Below are positions 18,556 to 26,480 of a stretch of 64,000 nt of DNA, piece by piece. The DNA comes from Myxococcota bacterium (GTDB taxonomy: Bacteria > Myxococcota_A > SURF-8): assembly GCA_965140415.1 (NCBI GenBank), contig OZ223209.1:1888001-1952000 (forward strand). Reading direction: 5' to 3'. The first letter of the stretch is position 1, and every line of letters begins with the position of its first letter. The translations under genes were made by a program, and so were the position numbers. The notes beneath the pieces were generated by a model. It was not told the DNA's origin. It worked only from the letters and a program-made list of their open reading frames with translations, and ran no database searches.

Positions 18556-19044
18556 TTATTTCAGTTTCGTAATGTCGGAACTGCTAGGGCGGCGCATGCC
18601 GCGTTTTTCTGCATTTCGGATAATCAACTCCGGTTTCAAATAGGTCGTGATCTGGTTTTGAAGCTTTTCCTGTTGCAGATGCAAACTCTGCTCCTGGCGC
18701 ATTAACTCGGTGATTTTGAAGCGGGTTCGGCGATCGTGCACGACCGAGGACACGTAGACCAGGCAGATCGCAACCAGGGCTACGATAAGGGACACGAAAG
18801 CCAGTCGCTGAATGTTGCTGATCTGAAACGCGCCTTGTGGCTTGGCCACGGGCTTGGCTGCTTGGGCACCGGTATTGCGGCGGGTTTTGGTTTTTGCAGC
18901 GGCGGAGTTTGCATTGGCCAGTCTCACGCGGGTCGTGCGTGTTGCGGCGGTGCTACGTTTGGCCGTGCCGGATGAAGCGCTACGGCTTTTTTTCGGTAGG
19001 CTGATTGTAGCATAGCTCTTTTTCTGCTGAATGACATATTTCAT
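18556..19044 (-). CDS. ftsL: FtsL-like protein with long basic N-terminal tail
   Basis: Position between rsmH and ftsI; about 80-aa basic low-complexity N-terminus, one TM, heptad coiled coil, and a C-terminal A.K.GM..P motif typical of FtsL. Confidence 0.75.
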   Translation of the reverse strand: MKYVIQQKKSYATISLPKKSRSASSGTAKRSTAATRTTRVRLANANSAAAKTKTRRNTGAQAAKPVAKPQGAFQISNIQRLAFVSLIVALVAICLVYVSSVVHDRRTRFKITELMRQEQSLHLQQEKLQNQITTYLKPELIIRNAEKRGMRRPSSSDITKLK

Positions 19045-19991
19045 CGGACACTCCTTTCCGCTACGCGCAGTTTGGCGCTACGGGCTCGGGGATTGGCCTC
19101 GATTTCTTTCTCGCTAGGCAATATCGGTTTCCGGGTCAGCACAACGGCTTCCCGGCGTTTATCACATCCGCAGACCGGCAGGTCCGGCGGGCAGATGCAG
19201 TCGATGGTCCAGTCGCGCATCGTGTGGCGCACGATACGATCTTCCAGGCTGTGATAGCTGATAACTGCAAGCCTGCCGCTCGGCTTGAGTGCATGCAGGG
19301 CCTGGGGTAGCAGTGCTTCCAGGCTGTCCAGTTCTCCGTTGACGGCAATGCGCAGCGCCTGGCAGGTCTGCGTGGCGGCATGAATACGCTTGGGATGAAA
19401 GCGGCGTGGAATCGCTTGCTCGACGATAGACGCCAGTTGGGTCATGTCGTTCAACTCACCTGCCTCCAACGCCTCTTTAAGCGCACGCGCAATGCGGTAG
19501 CCGTTGCGCTCTTCGCCGTAGCGGCTGATTATCGTCGCCAACTGTTTGGTGTCCAGTTGTTCGATCAGATCCTTCGCGCTGTTTCCTCGGCTTTGATCCA
19601 TGCGCATGTCGATGGGACCGGCGAAGCGGAAACTGAAGCCGCGTTCGGGATCGTCCAGTTGGCGGGAAGATAAACCCAGATCTGCCAGGATGCCATCTAC
19701 CGCTTCGATTTCAAGTTCCTCTAGTACCTGGGCCAGCTCGGCGAAGTTGGTTTGAACCATTTGCAAACGTTCGCCATAGCTGGACAGGCGCTGTCGGGTG
19801 TATTCGATTACCTGGGCGTCCAAGTCCAGACCGATCACCCGGCCTGTCGGTGCGGAGCGCTTCAGCATTTCTTCGATATGACCGCCGCCGTTTGCCGTAC
19901 AATCGACATACACACCGCCATCCACCGGTTGCAGCCAGTCCATGCATTGCGTAAGCAACACCGGCTTATGATGCAGCGCCAAACTCGTCAT
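19041..19991 (-). CDS. rsmH: 16S rRNA m4C1402 methyltransferase RsmH (MraW)
   Basis: Start MTSLALHHKPVLL at 19991 (TAATG overlap with the upstream stop); DLGLSS.QLD..ERGFSF, DMRMD, QALRIAVN.EL, SYHSLEDR, NPRARSAKLR. Confidence 0.96.
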   Translation of the reverse strand: MTSLALHHKPVLLTQCMDWLQPVDGGVYVDCTANGGGHIEEMLKRSAPTGRVIGLDLDAQVIEYTRQRLSSYGERLQMVQTNFAELAQVLEELEIEAVDGILADLGLSSRQLDDPERGFSFRFAGPIDMRMDQSRGNSAKDLIEQLDTKQLATIISRYGEERNGYRIARALKEALEAGELNDMTQLASIVEQAIPRRFHPKRIHAATQTCQALRIAVNGELDSLEALLPQALHALKPSGRLAVISYHSLEDRIVRHTMRDWTIDCICPPDLPVCGCDKRREAVVLTRKPILPSEKEIEANPRARSAKLRVAERSVR

Positions 19992-20323
19992 TACATCTGC
20001 TCCAGCGCCTGGCGAGGCGAGTCGAAACAATCGAAGGTCATCGGATAGCCGACTGCCGAGAAAATACTGGACACATAGTGGTTCATGCCCGCCAGTTGCA
20101 AGCTGCCATGTCTGCGACTCAATCGCCCAGCCACCGCAGCCAACAGATCGGCGGTGCGATAGTAAATATGCGAGGTGGCGCTTAAATCGATGACGAGTTG
20201 CCGGATGCCGTCGTCTTCCAGATTTTCCAGTGCGCGACGCAGCACGGGCAGGTCTTGACGGTCGATGACCGATCCTGCCGAAATAATGGCGATTCCCGTT
20301 CGTGGTTGACGAATGGTGAGCAT
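19991..20323 (-). CDS. STAS-domain (anti-sigma-factor antagonist-like) protein
   Basis: 110 aa with STAS pattern I...G.VID......LR..L..L...G...LVIDLS...HI......L......L....G.L.LAG.N.YV..IF..VG; GGAG SD upstream. Confidence 0.8.
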   Translation of the reverse strand: MLTIRQPRTGIAIISAGSVIDRQDLPVLRRALENLEDDGIRQLVIDLSATSHIYYRTADLLAAVAGRLSRRHGSLQLAGMNHYVSSIFSAVGYPMTFDCFDSPRQALEQM

Positions 20324-20395
20324 ACTTCCGGTCTCCCAAGTTCCCAGTCGGTTATGAAAATCGAAAAGGCAATCAAATGAAAAATAGAAAAAATC

Positions 20396-20884
20396 TCAAC
20401 TGCTGAAATGGTGATTGTGCTTGAGCCACACATCGTGCGCTTTGGCGCGCAGCATATCGTCGATGGCTTCAAAGCGTTCCTTGGCCCAAAGTTCCATTTT
20501 CGAGCCGACACCGATCCACAGCACTTCGTTGTTCATCCCGGCCCAATCCCGGTAGAACTGTGGTAAAACCATGCGGCCCTGACGGTCCAGCTTGCATTCC
20601 ATCGCTCGTGAAATGTAACCGATGTACATGGCGTGGATCGCTTCCGGCTCTACTAGTCGGTTTACTTCCTCGCAACGTTGTTGCCATCCGCCCAAAGGCC
20701 AGATTTCGAAATAGCGTTGCTCCGGGTCATGGCCGGGAACGGCGATGATGCTTCCTGCTTCCTCTTCCGAAAGTTGGCTGCGGAAAGAACCGGGCATAAT
20801 CAGGCGAGCTTTGGCGTCGAATTCCTTCGCTACCATCCCCTGAAATAAATAGCCCTGTCGATCGTCCATGTTCACCATCAGCAA
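20396..20884 (-). CDS. mraZ: Division/cell wall cluster transcriptional repressor MraZ (start may be 20878 or 20869)
   Basis: FQG...FDAKARLIMP..FR and LDRQGRMVLP duplicated AbrB-like motifs, IGVG.KMELW; first gene of the dcw cluster. Confidence 0.93.
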   Translation of the reverse strand: MLMVNMDDRQGYLFQGMVAKEFDAKARLIMPGSFRSQLSEEEAGSIIAVPGHDPEQRYFEIWPLGGWQQRCEEVNRLVEPEAIHAMYIGYISRAMECKLDRQGRMVLPQFYRDWAGMNNEVLWIGVGSKMELWAKERFEAIDDMLRAKAHDVWLKHNHHFSS

Positions 20885-21049: not shown

Positions 21050-21296
21050 GGTCTTTTTGGGACATCGTGTCTTTTTTTTCGTCGCTTTGCTATCTTGTAT
21101 GTCATCGCCAGGGAGGGCACAGGATATTGTGGTGTATAGTGCCTTGAACGGAGGATTTAAAAGCGACATGTAAAGGGCGATAGTCGTAAAAGATTAATAT
21201 CATTAATAATATAGGCGTTTTTAGTGTTGGAAGACCTTGGTTTGTGGTGATCGTTCCCAATCGGCTGGTAGTGTTTGTGAATGGGAGAAAGTGGGC

Positions 21297-23444
21297 ATGG
21301 CTCGTACCGTGGCTGAATACAAAGAAGACATTGCCCGACAGCGAGAGCAAATTCTTCAGATATATCTAACTCATTATCCGAACTACGACACCTCCCGTAT
21401 CGAAAAGGCAATGGATTATGCCGAGTTGTTGCATCGAGGTCAGATGCGTCGCAGCGGCAATCCCTACATTTTTCATCCCTTGGCCGTCACCCGCCTGGTG
21501 GCGGAAGCGGAACTGGATGAAAGCTGTTTGATTTCAGCCATTTTACACGACACGATTGAAGATACAGTCGCCAGTAAAGATGTGATTGCGGATAAATTCG
21601 ACCCGTACATCTCCGATCTGGTTCAGGCGATGACCAAGATCAAGAGCTATTCCGCTGAGCGCCGCGAAGAAGACAAGCGACTGACCTACAAGCGTATCCT
21701 GAAGGCGGCGAGTAAGGATATTCGGCCTTTATTGATCAAGATATATGACCGCTTAAATAACATGCGTGAGATGTCGCATATGCCCGAGGGGCATCGATTG
21801 CGGATTTCACGTGAGACTCTGGAGGTTTACGTTCCCCTGGCAAGGCGTCTTGGCATGAGCCGCGTAGAGCGGGAACTGATCAATCACTCCCTGAAATATC
21901 TCTATGCCAAACCCTATAAGGCGATCAAGGAACGTTTGGCCAAGGAAAGCGATCTACGCGAAGACGAAATCAGCGCAACGTTGGAACTCATCGATTCCAC
22001 CTTCCGCGCCCAGAATATCTGGTTGGAACTGGTTTCCGCCTGGCCGGCGGCTGCGGATTTCTACCAACCGAATATCGGTATTGCCACCGAAGGAGAAATT
22101 GAAGTACAGCTTAACCTGATCCTGCCGGAAATACAGAATTTATACCTGGCCTTGGGGATCATGCATCAGCTCTTCACTCCGGTACCGCTACAGATTCGCG
22201 ACATGGTGGCCAGCCCGATGGCCAACGGTTTCCGCGCGTTGTTGACCAAGGTGGTGATCGGGGGTCGTATCTATCGCGTGTCGATTTCCACGCCGGAAAT
22301 GTATCAGGTCAATCAACGTGGCATCGTTCACAACTGGAAGCAGAATCAGAACCGCCTGTCCGGTTATTACACCAATTACATGCAGATTCTGGAAGAACTG
22401 CTGGCCGACGAGGAAGTGCGCGTCGATGACGTGCTGCGTCAGTCCTCGGTGGATGGTCTGGCGATTTTCTCTCCGCGCAAAGATTTGTATATCCTGCCGG
22501 AGGGCAGCACGGTTATCGATTTCGCTTATGAGATCCACCAGCAGGTCGGTGAACACGCCAAAGAGGCGCTGGTAAACGGTGTCGCTCGACCCATCAGCCA
22601 CGAGTTGAAGACCGGGGATGTCGTGCGTATCATCACCGACAGCAAAGTACATCCGGAAAAGAACTGGGTGGATTTTGCGAAAAGCCCCAAAGCCCGGTCC
22701 AATATCAACAACTGGCTGCGGCGCGAAATGGAGCGGCGCATTGTCGAAATGGGGCGTTCTCTGCTGTTTGCGGAACTGGAAAAATACGGGCGCGATCCGT
22801 TGGTTGTAGTGGAAAGCGCGGAATTTAAGGAGATCTTAAAGCAGCATAAATTCAAGCTGGATGAGTTGTACCGGCGCATCGGATATCGGCAGATTATCGC
22901 GAGTCGCTTCGTTCGCAAGAACGGGATCATTCCGGCGGAACAGATAGACCGGCGTAAGCGCATCGAGCGGCAGTCGATCCGTGACCGTTTGTTCAATACG
23001 TTAAAGAGCAAACGCGGGCAGACCTGGAAGTTCAAAAAAGACGATATTTTCGTAAAATATGCGCGCTGTTGCAACCCGATCTTTGGAGACAAAGTGGTGG
23101 GAGTCTTAAGCGAAGGCAAAGGCGTGACCGTGCATCGCGACATCTGCCCGAATTTGAAAACGATCGAAGCCGACAAGCGTATTGAGGTGGAATGGGACAC
23201 CGAGGGTTTATCCACTTCAGCGCTTTTGAATCTGCATATCGGAGACCGGCAAGGTGTGATGGCCAAGATCCTGAATGTCGTCAACAAGCACGGCGTTAAT
23301 ATGAGTGAATTCAATGCCTATACGGTCGGTCACGAAGCCTTCATGAAAGTTCGGCTGGATGTGAATAGCCAGCGCGAACTGATAAAAATCGTGAACGATA
23401 TTCGTAAAATCGAAGAAGTGATCTCGATTACGCGCGAAGAGTAA
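21297..23444 (+). CDS. spoT: Long RelA/SpoT homologue (HD hydrolase, degenerate synthetase, TGS, ZFD, ACT)
   Basis: GGAG SD before ATG 21297; HRGQMRRSGNPYIFHP, ILHDTIED, DRLNNMR (hydrolase); TGS DFAYEIH..VG...VNG; ZFD ARCCNPIFGD...VHR..CPN; C-terminal ACT. Synthetase motifs are absent. Confidence 0.88.
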   Translation: MARTVAEYKEDIARQREQILQIYLTHYPNYDTSRIEKAMDYAELLHRGQMRRSGNPYIFHPLAVTRLVAEAELDESCLISAILHDTIEDTVASKDVIADKFDPYISDLVQAMTKIKSYSAERREEDKRLTYKRILKAASKDIRPLLIKIYDRLNNMREMSHMPEGHRLRISRETLEVYVPLARRLGMSRVERELINHSLKYLYAKPYKAIKERLAKESDLREDEISATLELIDSTFRAQNIWLELVSAWPAAADFYQPNIGIATEGEIEVQLNLILPEIQNLYLALGIMHQLFTPVPLQIRDMVASPMANGFRALLTKVVIGGRIYRVSISTPEMYQVNQRGIVHNWKQNQNRLSGYYTNYMQILEELLADEEVRVDDVLRQSSVDGLAIFSPRKDLYILPEGSTVIDFAYEIHQQVGEHAKEALVNGVARPISHELKTGDVVRIITDSKVHPEKNWVDFAKSPKARSNINNWLRREMERRIVEMGRSLLFAELEKYGRDPLVVVESAEFKEILKQHKFKLDELYRRIGYRQIIASRFVRKNGIIPAEQIDRRKRIERQSIRDRLFNTLKSKRGQTWKFKKDDIFVKYARCCNPIFGDKVVGVLSEGKGVTVHRDICPNLKTIEADKRIEVEWDTEGLSTSALLNLHIGDRQGVMAKILNVVNKHGVNMSEFNAYTVGHEAFMKVRLDVNSQRELIKIVNDIRKIEEVISITREE

Positions 23445-23678: not shown

Positions 23679-26480
23679 ATGAATCGGAATATGGTGGCGT
23701 TTTTCGCCTTTTGCGTTGTATGGCTAGTAGCCGGTTCCGTCGCGGCGACCGAGCCGGGGCTTTCTCTGCAAGGCTTTACCGCCAAATATCCCACTGCCAA
23801 GTTGGATATCCAACAGGGGCAGGTGCGTATGATCGCCAATGTGAAGATTCCGACAACGGAAGCAAAAACGGCCACCCTGCGGGCGCAGTCGTTTTTACAG
23901 GCCAATGCCCGCTTATTGCAATTGGGTGACGTGCAGCGGGATTTCAGCGCGCAGAAGGAACTGACTCTGCGGCAGGGTAAGGTGGCTCATTTTATCCAGA
24001 CCTACCAGGGAATTCCCGTCTATCATGGGGAAATCAAGGTGGTGTTGGATGCAGAGGGCAATGTGACTCGCGTTCACAATCATGCTCGCCGGGTGGAGGG
24101 CTTGTCGCTCGTGCCCGCCATCAGTCCGAACGATGCGATCATGGAAGGCTGGGCGCAGGTTTACGGAGTGGCTGGAAATCAATTGACCGCTCGCGAGATG
24201 GATTCCAAATACGCCCGTCTGCTCGTGATGGGACATGGTGCAGGCGCGGTTTTAGCCTATGCCGTTGGGATGCCGATCGGACTGCCGACCGAGCGCCGGG
24301 TGGCTTTTATCGATGCGCACACTGGCGATTTTCTGGGTTCGATGAACCAGGTCGTGTACGCGCATATGGCGAACGTGTACGAATTCAATCCGGGTGGCGA
24401 TACAAGCAATCCGCAGGCGACCGTCGTGCGCGAGATCGGCTATATGGCGCCGGATCAAAAGCATTGCCTGGGCATGTTCCACTATGCTTATAACTGCATC
24501 GACGAAGGCGATACGTTCAATATTCCGTTCCTGGGCAGTATTCCGCGCTGCACCGAGCGTTACAAAGCCGAAGCCGATGAAAACTACGATTTCGACAAGC
24601 ACGTGCTGCCGGTACTTGGCGATGCCGAAACGGAAGGCGTGTTGGATGATGACTTCTCCGAAGTGCATCTGTTCTACCACGTCGATAAAATCTACACCTA
24701 CTTCCGCCAACTGGCGCAGCACATCGATGATACAGACCCTCCCTTTGAAACGCTGACGGAGCCGGTGCTCAATTGCGTGGCGAACTTCCGCACGTTGGAC
24801 GTCGAGGAGATCATGTCCACCGGCCAGATTCCCACCAACCCTGAACTTGCGCCGTTTAATAACGCCATGTTCGTAACGGGTGGTGGCTTGTTCGGCTTCT
24901 ATCCCGAGCGGGATTCCATCATCTTCGGACAGGGTTCCGGTGTAGACTTCTCCTACGATGCGGACGTCATCTACCACGAATTCACCCATGCCGTCGTGGG
25001 TAGTACGGCGGGACTGGCCTCGACGGCATACGACCAATACGGGGCGGCCACCGATCCGGGCGCGATGAACGAAGGCTATGCGGACTTCTTTTCCGCGACT
25101 TACGTCGGCAATCCCGAGATGGCCGAATATGTGGGTAATTTCCTGTCCGAGGAGAACTATCTGCGCAACTTGACCAACACGAAGAGCTGCCCGACCGACG
25201 TCAAAGGCGAAGTTCACGACGATTCGGAATGGTGGTCTGGAGCTTTGTGGACGGTGCGCGAGCAGTACAAGGCTTCCGATCAGGATCACTGGGACGTCGA
25301 TGCGGCGATTTTCAGTGCTATGATCACCCTGCCTGCCGAAGCTACGTACACCGAAGCCGCAACGGCAACGGTTGAAAGTATGCGCACCTGGTTCGGCGAG
25401 GATGCTGCCACGTTTGCAACTACCACCTTTACCAATCGCGGCCTGTTCAACTGTACTCGCGCAGTGCCCACCAATGCAGGGCAGGCGATCTCCTCCTACT
25501 CCTTCCCCAGCGACAGCAAAACGCCTTCCACTCCGGGCTATTTCCAGTTGGACATTCAAGGCGCTAGCAAGGATTACATCCGGGTTGAATTTCTGGCAAT
25601 CGCGCAGGGCGGCATTATGGGCGGTTCCACGGATGTCACGGTCTTCATCCGCAAGGATCTGCCGGTGACGTTTGAATACGATGGAGATACCGTTACGGCG
25701 ACGGCGGACATGGTGGTGAATCCGGTCAAATTCGGAACGATCATGAACCAGTTCGATCAGTACGTCGGTATCGCGCAAAACGAGGATGGCAGCCCCATCG
25801 GCGGTCATTACTATTTCGCGTTTGGCGTGGCCAGCAGTGGTGGCGGCATGTTCGATATGGGCGGCGGCACACTGTACAACCTGAAAGTGGAATTTTTAGA
25901 CGGCGTTCCCCCCTGCACGGCGGATGAGGATTGTGGCGATTGCCAGATCTGCAACGACGAGCATGCCTGTGAAGATGCCTATGGCGAATGCATGAACGAC
26001 TCAGACTGCGATAGCGGCTATGTCTGTGAAGACAACGAAGGCTGCGGCGGTCATTGCGAAGAAGTGCCCTTAGATGGCGATCTGACGGACGGCGACATGA
26101 CGGCGGATGGCGACAATGCTCCCGATGGCGATGTCGATGGCGACGATTCCGACGGGGATACGAGCGAACCGGACTGCACCGTCAGCGCGGATTGCGGCGA
26201 CTGTCAGATCTGCGTCAGCGGCGTTTGTTTGGATGCCGCGCCCGAATGCGAAGAGGATGAAGATTGCGAAGAGGGCGAAATCTGCGGTGAAGGCGAGTGC
26301 GGTGGTGAGTGTCAGGCGATCGACGGCGATCAGGCCGATGGCGATGAACCTGCCGATGGTGATACCGGCGTCGGCCAGAATGATGGCAGTGGCGGCGGTT
26401 GCGGACAGACCACGGGGTCGGCAGCCTGGCTATTACTGCTGGGCTTTGGATTGCTGCTGCTTCGCAGGCGCTTTGTCTGA
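23679..26480 (+). CDS. Secreted thermolysin-like (M4/M36) zinc metalloprotease with Cys-rich/DGD stalk and MYXO-CTERM-like anchor
   Basis: Signal peptide; FTP propeptide (F.QTYQGIPVY.GE); DVIYHEFTH plus MNEGYADFF plus EVH zinc motifs; C-terminus GGGC...AWLLLLGFGLLLLRRR. Confidence 0.88.
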   Translation: MNRNMVAFFAFCVVWLVAGSVAATEPGLSLQGFTAKYPTAKLDIQQGQVRMIANVKIPTTEAKTATLRAQSFLQANARLLQLGDVQRDFSAQKELTLRQGKVAHFIQTYQGIPVYHGEIKVVLDAEGNVTRVHNHARRVEGLSLVPAISPNDAIMEGWAQVYGVAGNQLTAREMDSKYARLLVMGHGAGAVLAYAVGMPIGLPTERRVAFIDAHTGDFLGSMNQVVYAHMANVYEFNPGGDTSNPQATVVREIGYMAPDQKHCLGMFHYAYNCIDEGDTFNIPFLGSIPRCTERYKAEADENYDFDKHVLPVLGDAETEGVLDDDFSEVHLFYHVDKIYTYFRQLAQHIDDTDPPFETLTEPVLNCVANFRTLDVEEIMSTGQIPTNPELAPFNNAMFVTGGGLFGFYPERDSIIFGQGSGVDFSYDADVIYHEFTHAVVGSTAGLASTAYDQYGAATDPGAMNEGYADFFSATYVGNPEMAEYVGNFLSEENYLRNLTNTKSCPTDVKGEVHDDSEWWSGALWTVREQYKASDQDHWDVDAAIFSAMITLPAEATYTEAATATVESMRTWFGEDAATFATTTFTNRGLFNCTRAVPTNAGQAISSYSFPSDSKTPSTPGYFQLDIQGASKDYIRVEFLAIAQGGIMGGSTDVTVFIRKDLPVTFEYDGDTVTATADMVVNPVKFGTIMNQFDQYVGIAQNEDGSPIGGHYYFAFGVASSGGGMFDMGGGTLYNLKVEFLDGVPPCTADEDCGDCQICNDEHACEDAYGECMNDSDCDSGYVCEDNEGCGGHCEEVPLDGDLTDGDMTADGDNAPDGDVDGDDSDGDTSEPDCTVSADCGDCQICVSGVCLDAAPECEEDEDCEEGEICGEGECGGECQAIDGDQADGDEPADGDTGVGQNDGSGGGCGQTTGSAAWLLLLGFGLLLLRRRFV

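Follow-up and report, generated by a model that had tools for sequence, protein, structure and literature searches.

The gene examined here encodes a long RelA/SpoT homologue (RSH) and lies at positions 21297..23444 on the plus strand of a 64-kb window, by which we mean the whole stretch of Myxococcota DNA analysed (contig OZ223209.1) and whose numbering all window coordinates follow. Its product is predicted to be a monofunctional (p)ppGpp hydrolase that carries a pseudo-synthetase (pseudo-SYNTH) domain. We refer to this product as P0001, the 'a' copy, and to the second long RSH of the same genome as P0121, its partner or the 'b' copy. The open frame runs without interruption from 21237 to 23444 (+), and its longer version is initiated by TTG at 21237; from the ATG at 21297, P0001 comprises 715 codons, followed by the stop codon that is included in the coordinates above. 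The ATG was favoured over the TTG because a Shine-Dalgarno-like GGGAGA, read from the sequence, precedes it by 8 nt (21283..21288, +) and because the N termini of orthologues line up with this start in a MAFFT alignment.

Pfam profiles recovered the full domain order of a long RSH in P0001, from HD_4 through ACT_4, with all domains on the plus strand. The HD (hydrolase) domain (aa 38-187; 21408..21857) matched HD_4 (PF13328) with 115.2 bits. It is followed by the pseudo-SYNTH domain (aa 196-350; 21882..22346), in which the catalytic positions are replaced and degenerate motifs lie at aa 247-258, 265-276, 298-317 and 326-332; RelA_SpoT (PF04607) scored 28.1 bits here, against a gathering score of 27, and aligned to aa 275-349 over profile positions 32-108 of 113, and the same model gave 141.6-145.8 bits on P0121. 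A Core linker about 8 residues shorter than in Rel (aa 351-385; 22347..22451) connects the pseudo-SYNTH to the TGS domain (aa 390-447; 22464..22637; Pfam TGS, 61.0 bits), after which come the helical (AH/RIS) and zinc-finger/conserved-cysteine (ZFD/CC) region (aa 464-624; 22686..23168; RelA_AH_RIS, 28.0 bits) and the ACT/RRM domain (aa 644-713; 23226..23435; ACT_4, 41.9 bits). H414 of the TGS domain and C591, C592, H613 and C617 of the ZFD were invariant in all 22 sequences aligned with MAFFT, and the ACT domain was conserved, in agreement with a preliminary description of this DNA, which had listed the TGS histidine, the CC...H..C residues and ACT as retained. All the elements of a long RSH, namely HD, the SYNTH fold (as a partial Pfam match), TGS, helical, ZFD/CC and ACT/RRM, are present in P0001. 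With the RelA/SpoT subfamily model TIGR00691 of NCBIfam (cut-off 499.2), P0001 scored 450.4 bits, below the cut-off, and P0121 scored 693.6, above it; the shortfall of P0001 is consistent with an eroded SYNTH domain.

The motif register was established by phmmer comparison with PDB chains of Rel, RelA and SpoT and by two MAFFT alignments, and all three agreed. The three HD motifs are canonical: the first reads HRGQMRRSGNPYIFHP (H46-RGQMRRSGNPYIFHP-61, that is, H46..Q49.R51..G54.P56Y57..H60P61), the second LHDTIEDT (H84-D85-TI-E88-D89) and the third DRLNNM (D151-RLNN-M156, with D151R152..N155M156), and they are invariant or nearly so across the clade of 'a' proteins. The metal ligands and catalytic residues of this domain are presumably those numbered R44, H53, H77/D78, E81/D82, D144 and N148 in RelSeq. 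As a separate observation, the stretch around the third HD motif (window about 21738-21764) reads K-[IL]-[FYL]-D-R in every hydrolase-only long RSH aligned and K-L-[AC]-[DE]-R in ordinary Rel, E. coli SpoT and E. coli RelA; the former pattern partly follows from the search pattern used below, and three proteins with an intact synthetase have it too.

The synthetase region is altered throughout. GRxKxxxSxxxK is replaced by SAWPAAADFYQP (aa 247-258, S247 to P258), the D..R strand by EGEIEVQLNLIL (E265 to L276), RFKDYIAxPKxNGYQSLHT by QIRDMVASPMANGFRALLT (298-LQIRDMVASPMANGFRALLT-317) and E(V/I)QIRT by YRVSIST (aa 326-332), so that all four of the synthetase catalytic motifs required of a bifunctional Rel[HS] are replaced in P0001. 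The synthetase positions that we take to correspond to R241, K243, K251, D264, R269, K304, H312, E323, Q325 and R327 in RelSeq numbering are likewise all replaced. The same replacements occur in all 21 aligned members of the 'a' clade, which excludes chance or sequencing error. The retained fold of the domain and the persistence of D302, N310, G311, F/Y312 and a basic residue at aa 301 would accord with a synthetase that works from a shifted register or an unconventional active site. We regard this as highly improbable: across the clade, and in all three alignments, the residues that should bind ATP phosphate and Mg2+ and supply the catalytic Glu have all given way to non-conservative substitutes (A, P, gap/E, N, R, S, S), and the first 31 positions of the Pfam RelA_SpoT model have no match at all. 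A shifted register restoring the synthetase catalytic residues, for which an alignment check had been suggested, was found neither in the phmmer-to-PDB comparison nor in either MAFFT alignment. The motif pattern is that expected of a hydrolase-competent, synthetase-dead protein, and it supports the preliminary description, which had called the gene a candidate hydrolase-only long RSH with its hydrolase motifs retained and every canonical synthetase motif replaced, in the register on which the three alignments agree.

A search of 5.8 billion protein clusters returned 17 homologue clusters of P0001 (41-62% identity, at least 629 bits), all carrying the same synthetase replacements, and the next best matches were ordinary Rel proteins (31% identity, 396 bits). 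Among 30 related genomes, two long RSHs were present in nine of nine from the same order and in one genome of another order (G010), and the remaining 20, all of the same phylum, had a single long-RSH match at E <= 1e-20. The eight closest public loci are titled as Myxococcota, Myxococcales or Deltaproteobacteria metagenome-assembled genomes (MAGs). When a 158-aa pseudo-SYNTH query was searched against 401 genomes of the phylum, scores of at least 72 bits were obtained only in this genome and eight others of the same order, and all other matches reached at most 59 bits. Of 1.84 billion representatives, a profile of the pseudo-SYNTH and Core matched only 6 at E <= 1e-30; at E <= 1e-10 it matched 2573, which were mostly ordinary synthetase domains. 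This particular hydrolase-only family is rare. The public names of its members (P0003, P0009 and similar proteins) are 'bifunctional (p)ppGpp synthetase/hydrolase' or 'GTP pyrophosphokinase', which the motif states contradict; for the synthetase part, the bifunctional or synthetase annotation of clade members is probably wrong.

The constraint on the two copies is reciprocal. Across nine genomes, the mean pairwise identity of the 'a' copy was 59% in HD and 39% in SYNTH, that of the 'b' copy in the same genomes was 39% in HD and 51% in SYNTH, and that of 15 single-copy Myxococcota Rel proteins was 61% and 54%, respectively. The pseudo-SYNTH was conserved to the same degree as the helical domain (39%), and this equality, together with an identity lower than that of SYNTH in Rel, indicates that the pseudo-SYNTH is relaxed but not free. 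It also has conserved motifs specific to the clade, WPxxADFY, PMANGYRALET and NWKxNQNRLSGYYTxYM. Recent decay of a bifunctional Rel into a nascent pseudogene, or an assembly artefact, is scarcely credible in view of the intact 715-aa open frame, the identical replacements in the 17 divergent clusters, the presence of the gene in nine of nine genomes of the order and the pseudo-SYNTH motifs just named. Close homologues with intact motifs, which the preliminary description had named as a sign of such decay or artefact, were absent from the 17 clusters and from the nine same-order genomes, which share the pseudo-synthetase. The loss of the synthetase in the 'a' copy is ancient and maintained, and is neither decay nor artefact.

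The AlphaFold2 model reached a confidence (pLDDT) of about 90 over pseudo-SYNTH aa 240-345, and its N-terminal half superposed on the catalytic fragments of RelSeq and Staphylococcus aureus Rel with TM scores of 0.87-0.90; the pseudo-SYNTH fold is thus kept in the model. The best Foldseek match by E-value was 7qpr (8e-35), the SpoT of Acinetobacter baumannii. The stretch from the pseudo-SYNTH to TGS (W347..P393) measured 47-48 aa in the 'a' clade. It is longer elsewhere: 53-56 aa in Rel, 51-58 aa in the partner clade, and 55 and 57 aa in SpoT and RelA of E. coli, respectively. A shorter Core has been associated with hydrolase specialization by Tamman et al. 2022 (PMC9974481).

The genome consists of one contig of 5.98 Mb, is 93.7% complete by marker genes and contains exactly two RSH genes (two matches among six candidates for PF04607, and two among eight for PF13328); these profile scans of the genome found no small alarmone synthetase or hydrolase, and candidates of this kind for supplying the missing activity were rejected. 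The only other RSH gene is that of P0121 (728 aa; G000:C1:371803-373935, locus L001, at about 373 kb on the minus strand), which confirms the expectation that listing the RSHs of the genome would reveal a separate synthetase. Its synthetase motifs are intact (GRTKHYYSIYRK, DLVAFR, EDYIAMPKPNGYQSLHT and EIQIRT), and it keeps all regulatory domains. In its HD domain, the first motif is HGQKKSKLGDAFLVHP, in which the Arg of GQxRxSG is lost (R to S/K), the second is LLHDAQVEN, in which E-D reads V-E, and the third is DRLQVM, with Val in place of Asn. With moderate confidence, we consider the hydrolase of P0121 to be inactive or weak.

The composition of the genome also bears on the substrate of the HD domain of P0001. 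If this domain had switched substrate, for example to (p)ppApp or, as reported for enzymes of the Mesh1 type, to NADPH, P0001 would not be the (p)ppGpp hydrolase of the cell. The structural matches do include HD enzymes with other substrates (the (p)ppApp hydrolase 7smg and Mesh1 with NADPH, 5vxa), and the clade has an unusual KI[FY]DR, compared with KLADR, in the third HD motif. However, all the canonical Rel/SpoT HD motifs are intact, and the conservation of the domain (59% identity) matches that in ordinary Rel (61%). In addition, because the partner lacks key hydrolase residues and the genome lacks a small alarmone hydrolase, some enzyme must remove (p)ppGpp. We therefore consider a substrate switch very unlikely and retain (p)ppGpp as the probable substrate of P0001.

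Comparison of the two copies within the order suggests the sequence of the losses. In the alignment, all 'a' proteins share a single pseudo-SYNTH pattern, and the decay of the partner HD domain varies by genus. The partner in G001, the closest relative (G001:C2:773012-775150, L071), has fully canonical HD motifs and an HD_4 score of 160.4 bits; the partner HD is partly eroded in this genome and in G002, and it is destroyed in G003, G005, G006, G008 and G009. The within-order trees of the 'a' and 'b' paralogues are congruent. The one shared 'a' pattern and the genus-specific decay of 'b', with G001 intact, suggest that the loss of the synthetase in 'a' came first, and we infer that the 'a' synthetase was lost once and early and the 'b' hydrolase later and repeatedly. 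For RelA and SpoT of Proteobacteria (Gammaproteobacteria), the published order of events is the reverse (PMC9974481; PMC3153485). Two other genomes of the phylum have, as the only long RSH detected, a protein whose synthetase is intact and whose hydrolase motifs are degenerate (G012:C77:39743-41647, L091; G028:C20:78926-81034, L106); elsewhere in these genomes, only weak HD_4 matches occur, in frames of 467-573 aa.

In trees with SpoT and RelA represented by the E. coli proteins, the 'a' clade (21 sequences, including the divergent G007b and G010a) was monophyletic with an SH-aLRT support of 100 and a long stem, and both E. coli proteins fell outside it; the branches that set the clade off from E. 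coli SpoT had support of 100 and 98. The SpoT equivalog of NCBIfam (NF008303) gave 329.7 bits on P0001, against a cut-off of 947, and the RelA equivalog gave 222.7, against 728. In phmmer comparisons with P0001, A. baumannii SpoT (7qpr) scored 217.6 bits, 8fr8 (a Rel chain annotated as RelA) 282.3 and Bacillus subtilis Rel 256.3. P0001 would act like the SpoT[Hs] of Moraxellaceae while lying outside the SpoT family, as an analogue and not an orthologue. The preliminary description had proposed independent evolution in a Myxococcota-like lineage and classification with RSH subfamily models; the scores below the SpoT, RelA and TIGR00691 cut-offs, the lower score of 7qpr than of the Rel chains, the position of E. 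coli SpoT outside the clade and the MAG titles of the nearest relatives all favour that proposal. A lineage-specific duplication of the partner was rejected, as an approximately unbiased (AU) test rejected a clade uniting 'a' and 'b' of the order (delta lnL 145.6, p 8.9e-117); subject to the facts that the groups were named after a tree had been seen and that long branches are present, 'a' did not arise by a recent duplication of 'b'.

The hydrolase-only state appears to extend beyond this order. A scan of a genome collection with two peptide patterns drawn from the 'a' clade, in a sample that is biased, also returned long RSHs from MAGs of SAR324, 'Deltaproteobacteria' and Lambdaproteobacteria (L014-L021, L025 and L046), of Chloroflexota, including Ardenticatenaceae and others (L024-L054 and L063), of Haliangium, Kofleriaceae and Polyangia (L038, L040, L042, L044, L050 and L060) and of Nitrospirota (L055, L056 and L059). 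All 37 full-length proteins scanned from these loci matched HD_4 with 73-150 bits; RelA_SpoT scored at most 78 bits or had no match in 34 of them, and the domain was intact, at 127-143 bits, in the other three. In the proteins from these loci, the HD motifs are canonical, and each group has its own replacements for the lost synthetase motifs. Further hydrolase-only proteins were present among the representative matches (P0123-P0128, P0132 and P0134). In each of five genomes from other lineages, one per group, another long RSH was present whose synthetase is intact (133.6-142.8 bits; partners in L111-L115), and the HD motifs were degenerate in all five of these partners. The loss of the synthetase, which the preliminary description had placed within this lineage, is on this reading not confined to it, and P0001 belongs to a wider, predicted hydrolase-only set in several phyla.

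A tree built without the SYNTH columns, in which long branches meet according to a warning of the tool, joined the 'a' clade to a SAR324-like set (94) and then to Kofleriaceae-like and Nitrospirota-like proteins (98), with Chloroflexota on the side of Rel; a tree of the C-terminal domains only left the hydrolase-only groups unresolved. Kofleriaceae-type proteins and the 'a' clade have in common a [WY]P..AD[FY] remnant and SP[LM]ANGY.AL.T, which suggests common ancestry within Myxococcota. At least two origins of the hydrolase-only state besides that in Moraxellaceae seem likely.

These partners also bear on whether P0001 is an enzyme at all. It might act mainly as a non-enzymatic regulator or sensor of the ribosome, tRNA or a nucleotide, with negligible hydrolysis in vivo and a bifunctional partner. 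The conservation of the regulatory domains and of TGS H414, the substantial HD score of the partner and the fully canonical partner HD in G001 could all be read in this way. However, the strict conservation of the HD catalytic motifs across a clade of order rank is hard to explain without catalysis, and the partner HD motifs are destroyed in five of five other lineages and in most genomes of the same order, which makes a mainly regulatory role very unlikely in our judgement.

We propose that P0001 is a monofunctional, Mn2+-dependent (p)ppGpp 3'-pyrophosphohydrolase with a folded, non-catalytic pseudo-SYNTH and that P0121 is its synthesis partner, and we assign this explanation a probability of roughly 80%. 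The HD domain of P0001 would carry out Mn2+-dependent hydrolysis of (p)ppGpp, and the former synthetase domain would persist as a folded, non-catalytic scaffold. As in A. baumannii SpoT, this scaffold, the shortened Core and the TGS, helical, ZFD and ACT domains probably act together to establish or control the conformation in which the hydrolase is active. P0121, as the only other RSH gene product, would be responsible for making the alarmone, and the two proteins would form a RelA-like/SpoT[Hs]-like pair that splits the synthesis and degradation of (p)ppGpp. What we have observed is the domain content, the motif states, the number of RSH genes, their conservation and their distribution; we infer the catalytic activities, the regulation by the pseudo-SYNTH and Core, and the loss of hydrolysis by the partner, and several points weigh on the other side. 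The whole case for the activities rests on motif states. The HD domain of P0121 as a whole still scores 133-137 bits with HD_4, with only specific residues changed, and residual hydrolase activity in P0121 is possible. The pseudo-SYNTH retains N310-G311-(Y/F)312 and the basic residue at aa 301, and some binding of nucleotide by it is possible. The AlphaFold2 model matched the compact tau state of 7qpr with a TM score of only 0.42 and had a pTM of 0.56, so that its domain packing is unreliable, and its pLDDT was below 50 for Core aa 365-385; because of this low confidence, the shortness of the Core is a sequence-level result only. Finally, we base the independence from Moraxellaceae on pairwise scores, on differing substitution patterns and on where E. 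coli SpoT falls in the trees.

A broader hypothesis, to which we give slightly less than an even chance, is that P0001 belongs to an old, multi-phylum, Rel-derived hydrolase-only family comprising this order, the Kofleriaceae/Haliangium type, SAR324 with allied 'delta/lambda' lineages and Nitrospirota, marked by KI[FY]DR in the HD domain and by a [WY]P..AD[FY] remnant in the pseudo-SYNTH, and that each member has a long-RSH partner in which synthesis is retained and hydrolysis is on the way out. The complete split would then have at least three evolutionary origins, one each in this family, Chloroflexota and Moraxellaceae; in the family, loss of the synthetase would have been the first step, and the G-loop retained by the pseudo-SYNTH (N-G-Y) could be an allosteric guanine-nucleotide sensor for the hydrolase.

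As for the surroundings of the gene, mraZ (20396..20884, minus strand) is divergent from it and is given for context only; the NCBIfam MraZ models scored 61-66 bits on its product, all under the curated cut-offs of 98-168. It begins a division and cell-wall cluster (mraZ, rsmH and an ftsL-like gene; 18556-20884, minus strand) that is transcribed away from the RSH gene, and the divergent mraZ-rsmH neighbourhood is kept at three of eight related loci. Promoter and terminator scans around the P0001 gene gave results at chance level only. Directly downstream, a 933-aa open reading frame (23679-26480, plus strand) has a fungalysin/thermolysin propeptide motif and weak matches to M36/M4 metallopeptidases with an HExxH site, and its C terminus consists of Asp/Cys-rich repeats followed by a hydrophobic, Arg-rich tail. 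By eye, this end resembled a sorting signal of the MYXO-CTERM type, but no NCBIfam model matched it at E <= 0.001.

Among known systems, the pair resembles RelA[hS] and SpoT[HS] of E. coli in that two long RSH paralogues divide the labour, with P0121 being RelA-like in combining a pseudo-HD with an active-looking SYNTH. However, E. coli SpoT keeps all synthetase motifs, unlike P0001. E. coli RelA has nothing left of the HD motif, of which P0121 still has H..HP, HD and D-R, with only some residues missing; in our trees, both E. coli proteins fall apart from their functional counterparts in this genome. P0001 shares the HD fold, the motifs and the predicted hydrolase-only function with small alarmone hydrolases (Mesh1 and RelH), but these consist of a single domain of about 180 aa and have no regulatory part, whereas P0001 keeps the whole long-RSH architecture. 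Plant RSH1 is a long RSH that is reported to be hydrolase-only through a substitution in its synthetase domain; it is a eukaryotic plastid protein, and it has a point change and not an erosion of all synthetase motifs.

Additional Rel-derived long RSH copies, RshA-RshD, are all labelled [HS] in the subfamily descriptions of Atkinson et al. 2011 (PMC3153485), in which RshD occurs in four organisms of the delta-proteobacterial type and RshB has a diverged HD; unlike P0001, none of them is given a dead synthetase in those descriptions, which are the basis of this comparison. The census of Jimmy et al. 2020 (PMC7229694) distinguishes 13 long-RSH subfamilies, and its supplementary table labels Ardenticatena maritima 'Rel[H],ActSpo2[H]' and Haliangium ochraceum 'Rel[HS]'; the A. 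maritima protein, a Rel-subfamily member for which the census registered the hydrolase domain alone, resembles the Chloroflexota loci described here. Under the four organism names looked up, the supplement has no entry for this Myxococcota lineage (PMC7229694). A hydrolase-only Rel is thus already on record as a label in that table, and the main text, as far as it bears on this label, does not discuss it. The full-text literature, with subscription journals and bioRxiv or other preprint supplements outside its scope, yielded nothing on such proteins in Myxococcota, and within it the term 'pseudo-SYNTH' appeared only in the paper on A. baumannii SpoT, a nanobody paper and preprint, and a preprint on A. 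baumannii RNA polymerase.

The complete split between hydrolase and synthetase has so far been studied only in Acinetobacter and its relatives. Subfunctionalization is called 'complete' in Moraxellaceae only in the account of Atkinson et al. 2011 (PMC3153485), and Moraxellaceae SpoT is the only bacterial case so described in the corresponding sections of that paper and of Tamman et al. 2022, where it is also used to argue that long RSHs tune catalysis by conformational constraint (PMC3153485, PMC9974481). SpoT of A. baumannii (7QPR) is the experimentally characterized precedent in the latter work, and P0001 resembles it, as described there, in being full-length, with an active-looking HD and a retained, dead pseudo-SYNTH (PMC9974481). 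Both proteins keep all C-terminal regulatory domains and coexist with a long RSH specialized for synthesis. Unlike A. baumannii SpoT, in which the aligned stretch differs, P0001 has PMANG(Y/F)RALxT; its relatives are Myxococcota-type MAGs, and the synthetase appears to have been lost before the partner hydrolase. A second, unrelated lineage at the same end state, together with pairs in at least four other groups, provides natural replicates of the Moraxellaceae case, in which the recurring features of hydrolase-only long RSHs would be a retained pseudo-SYNTH fold, a shortened Core and conserved regulatory domains. In the partner, the HD domain that is intact in G001, partly eroded in this genome and gone in G003, G005, G006, G008 and G009 offers a graded series of subfunctionalization.

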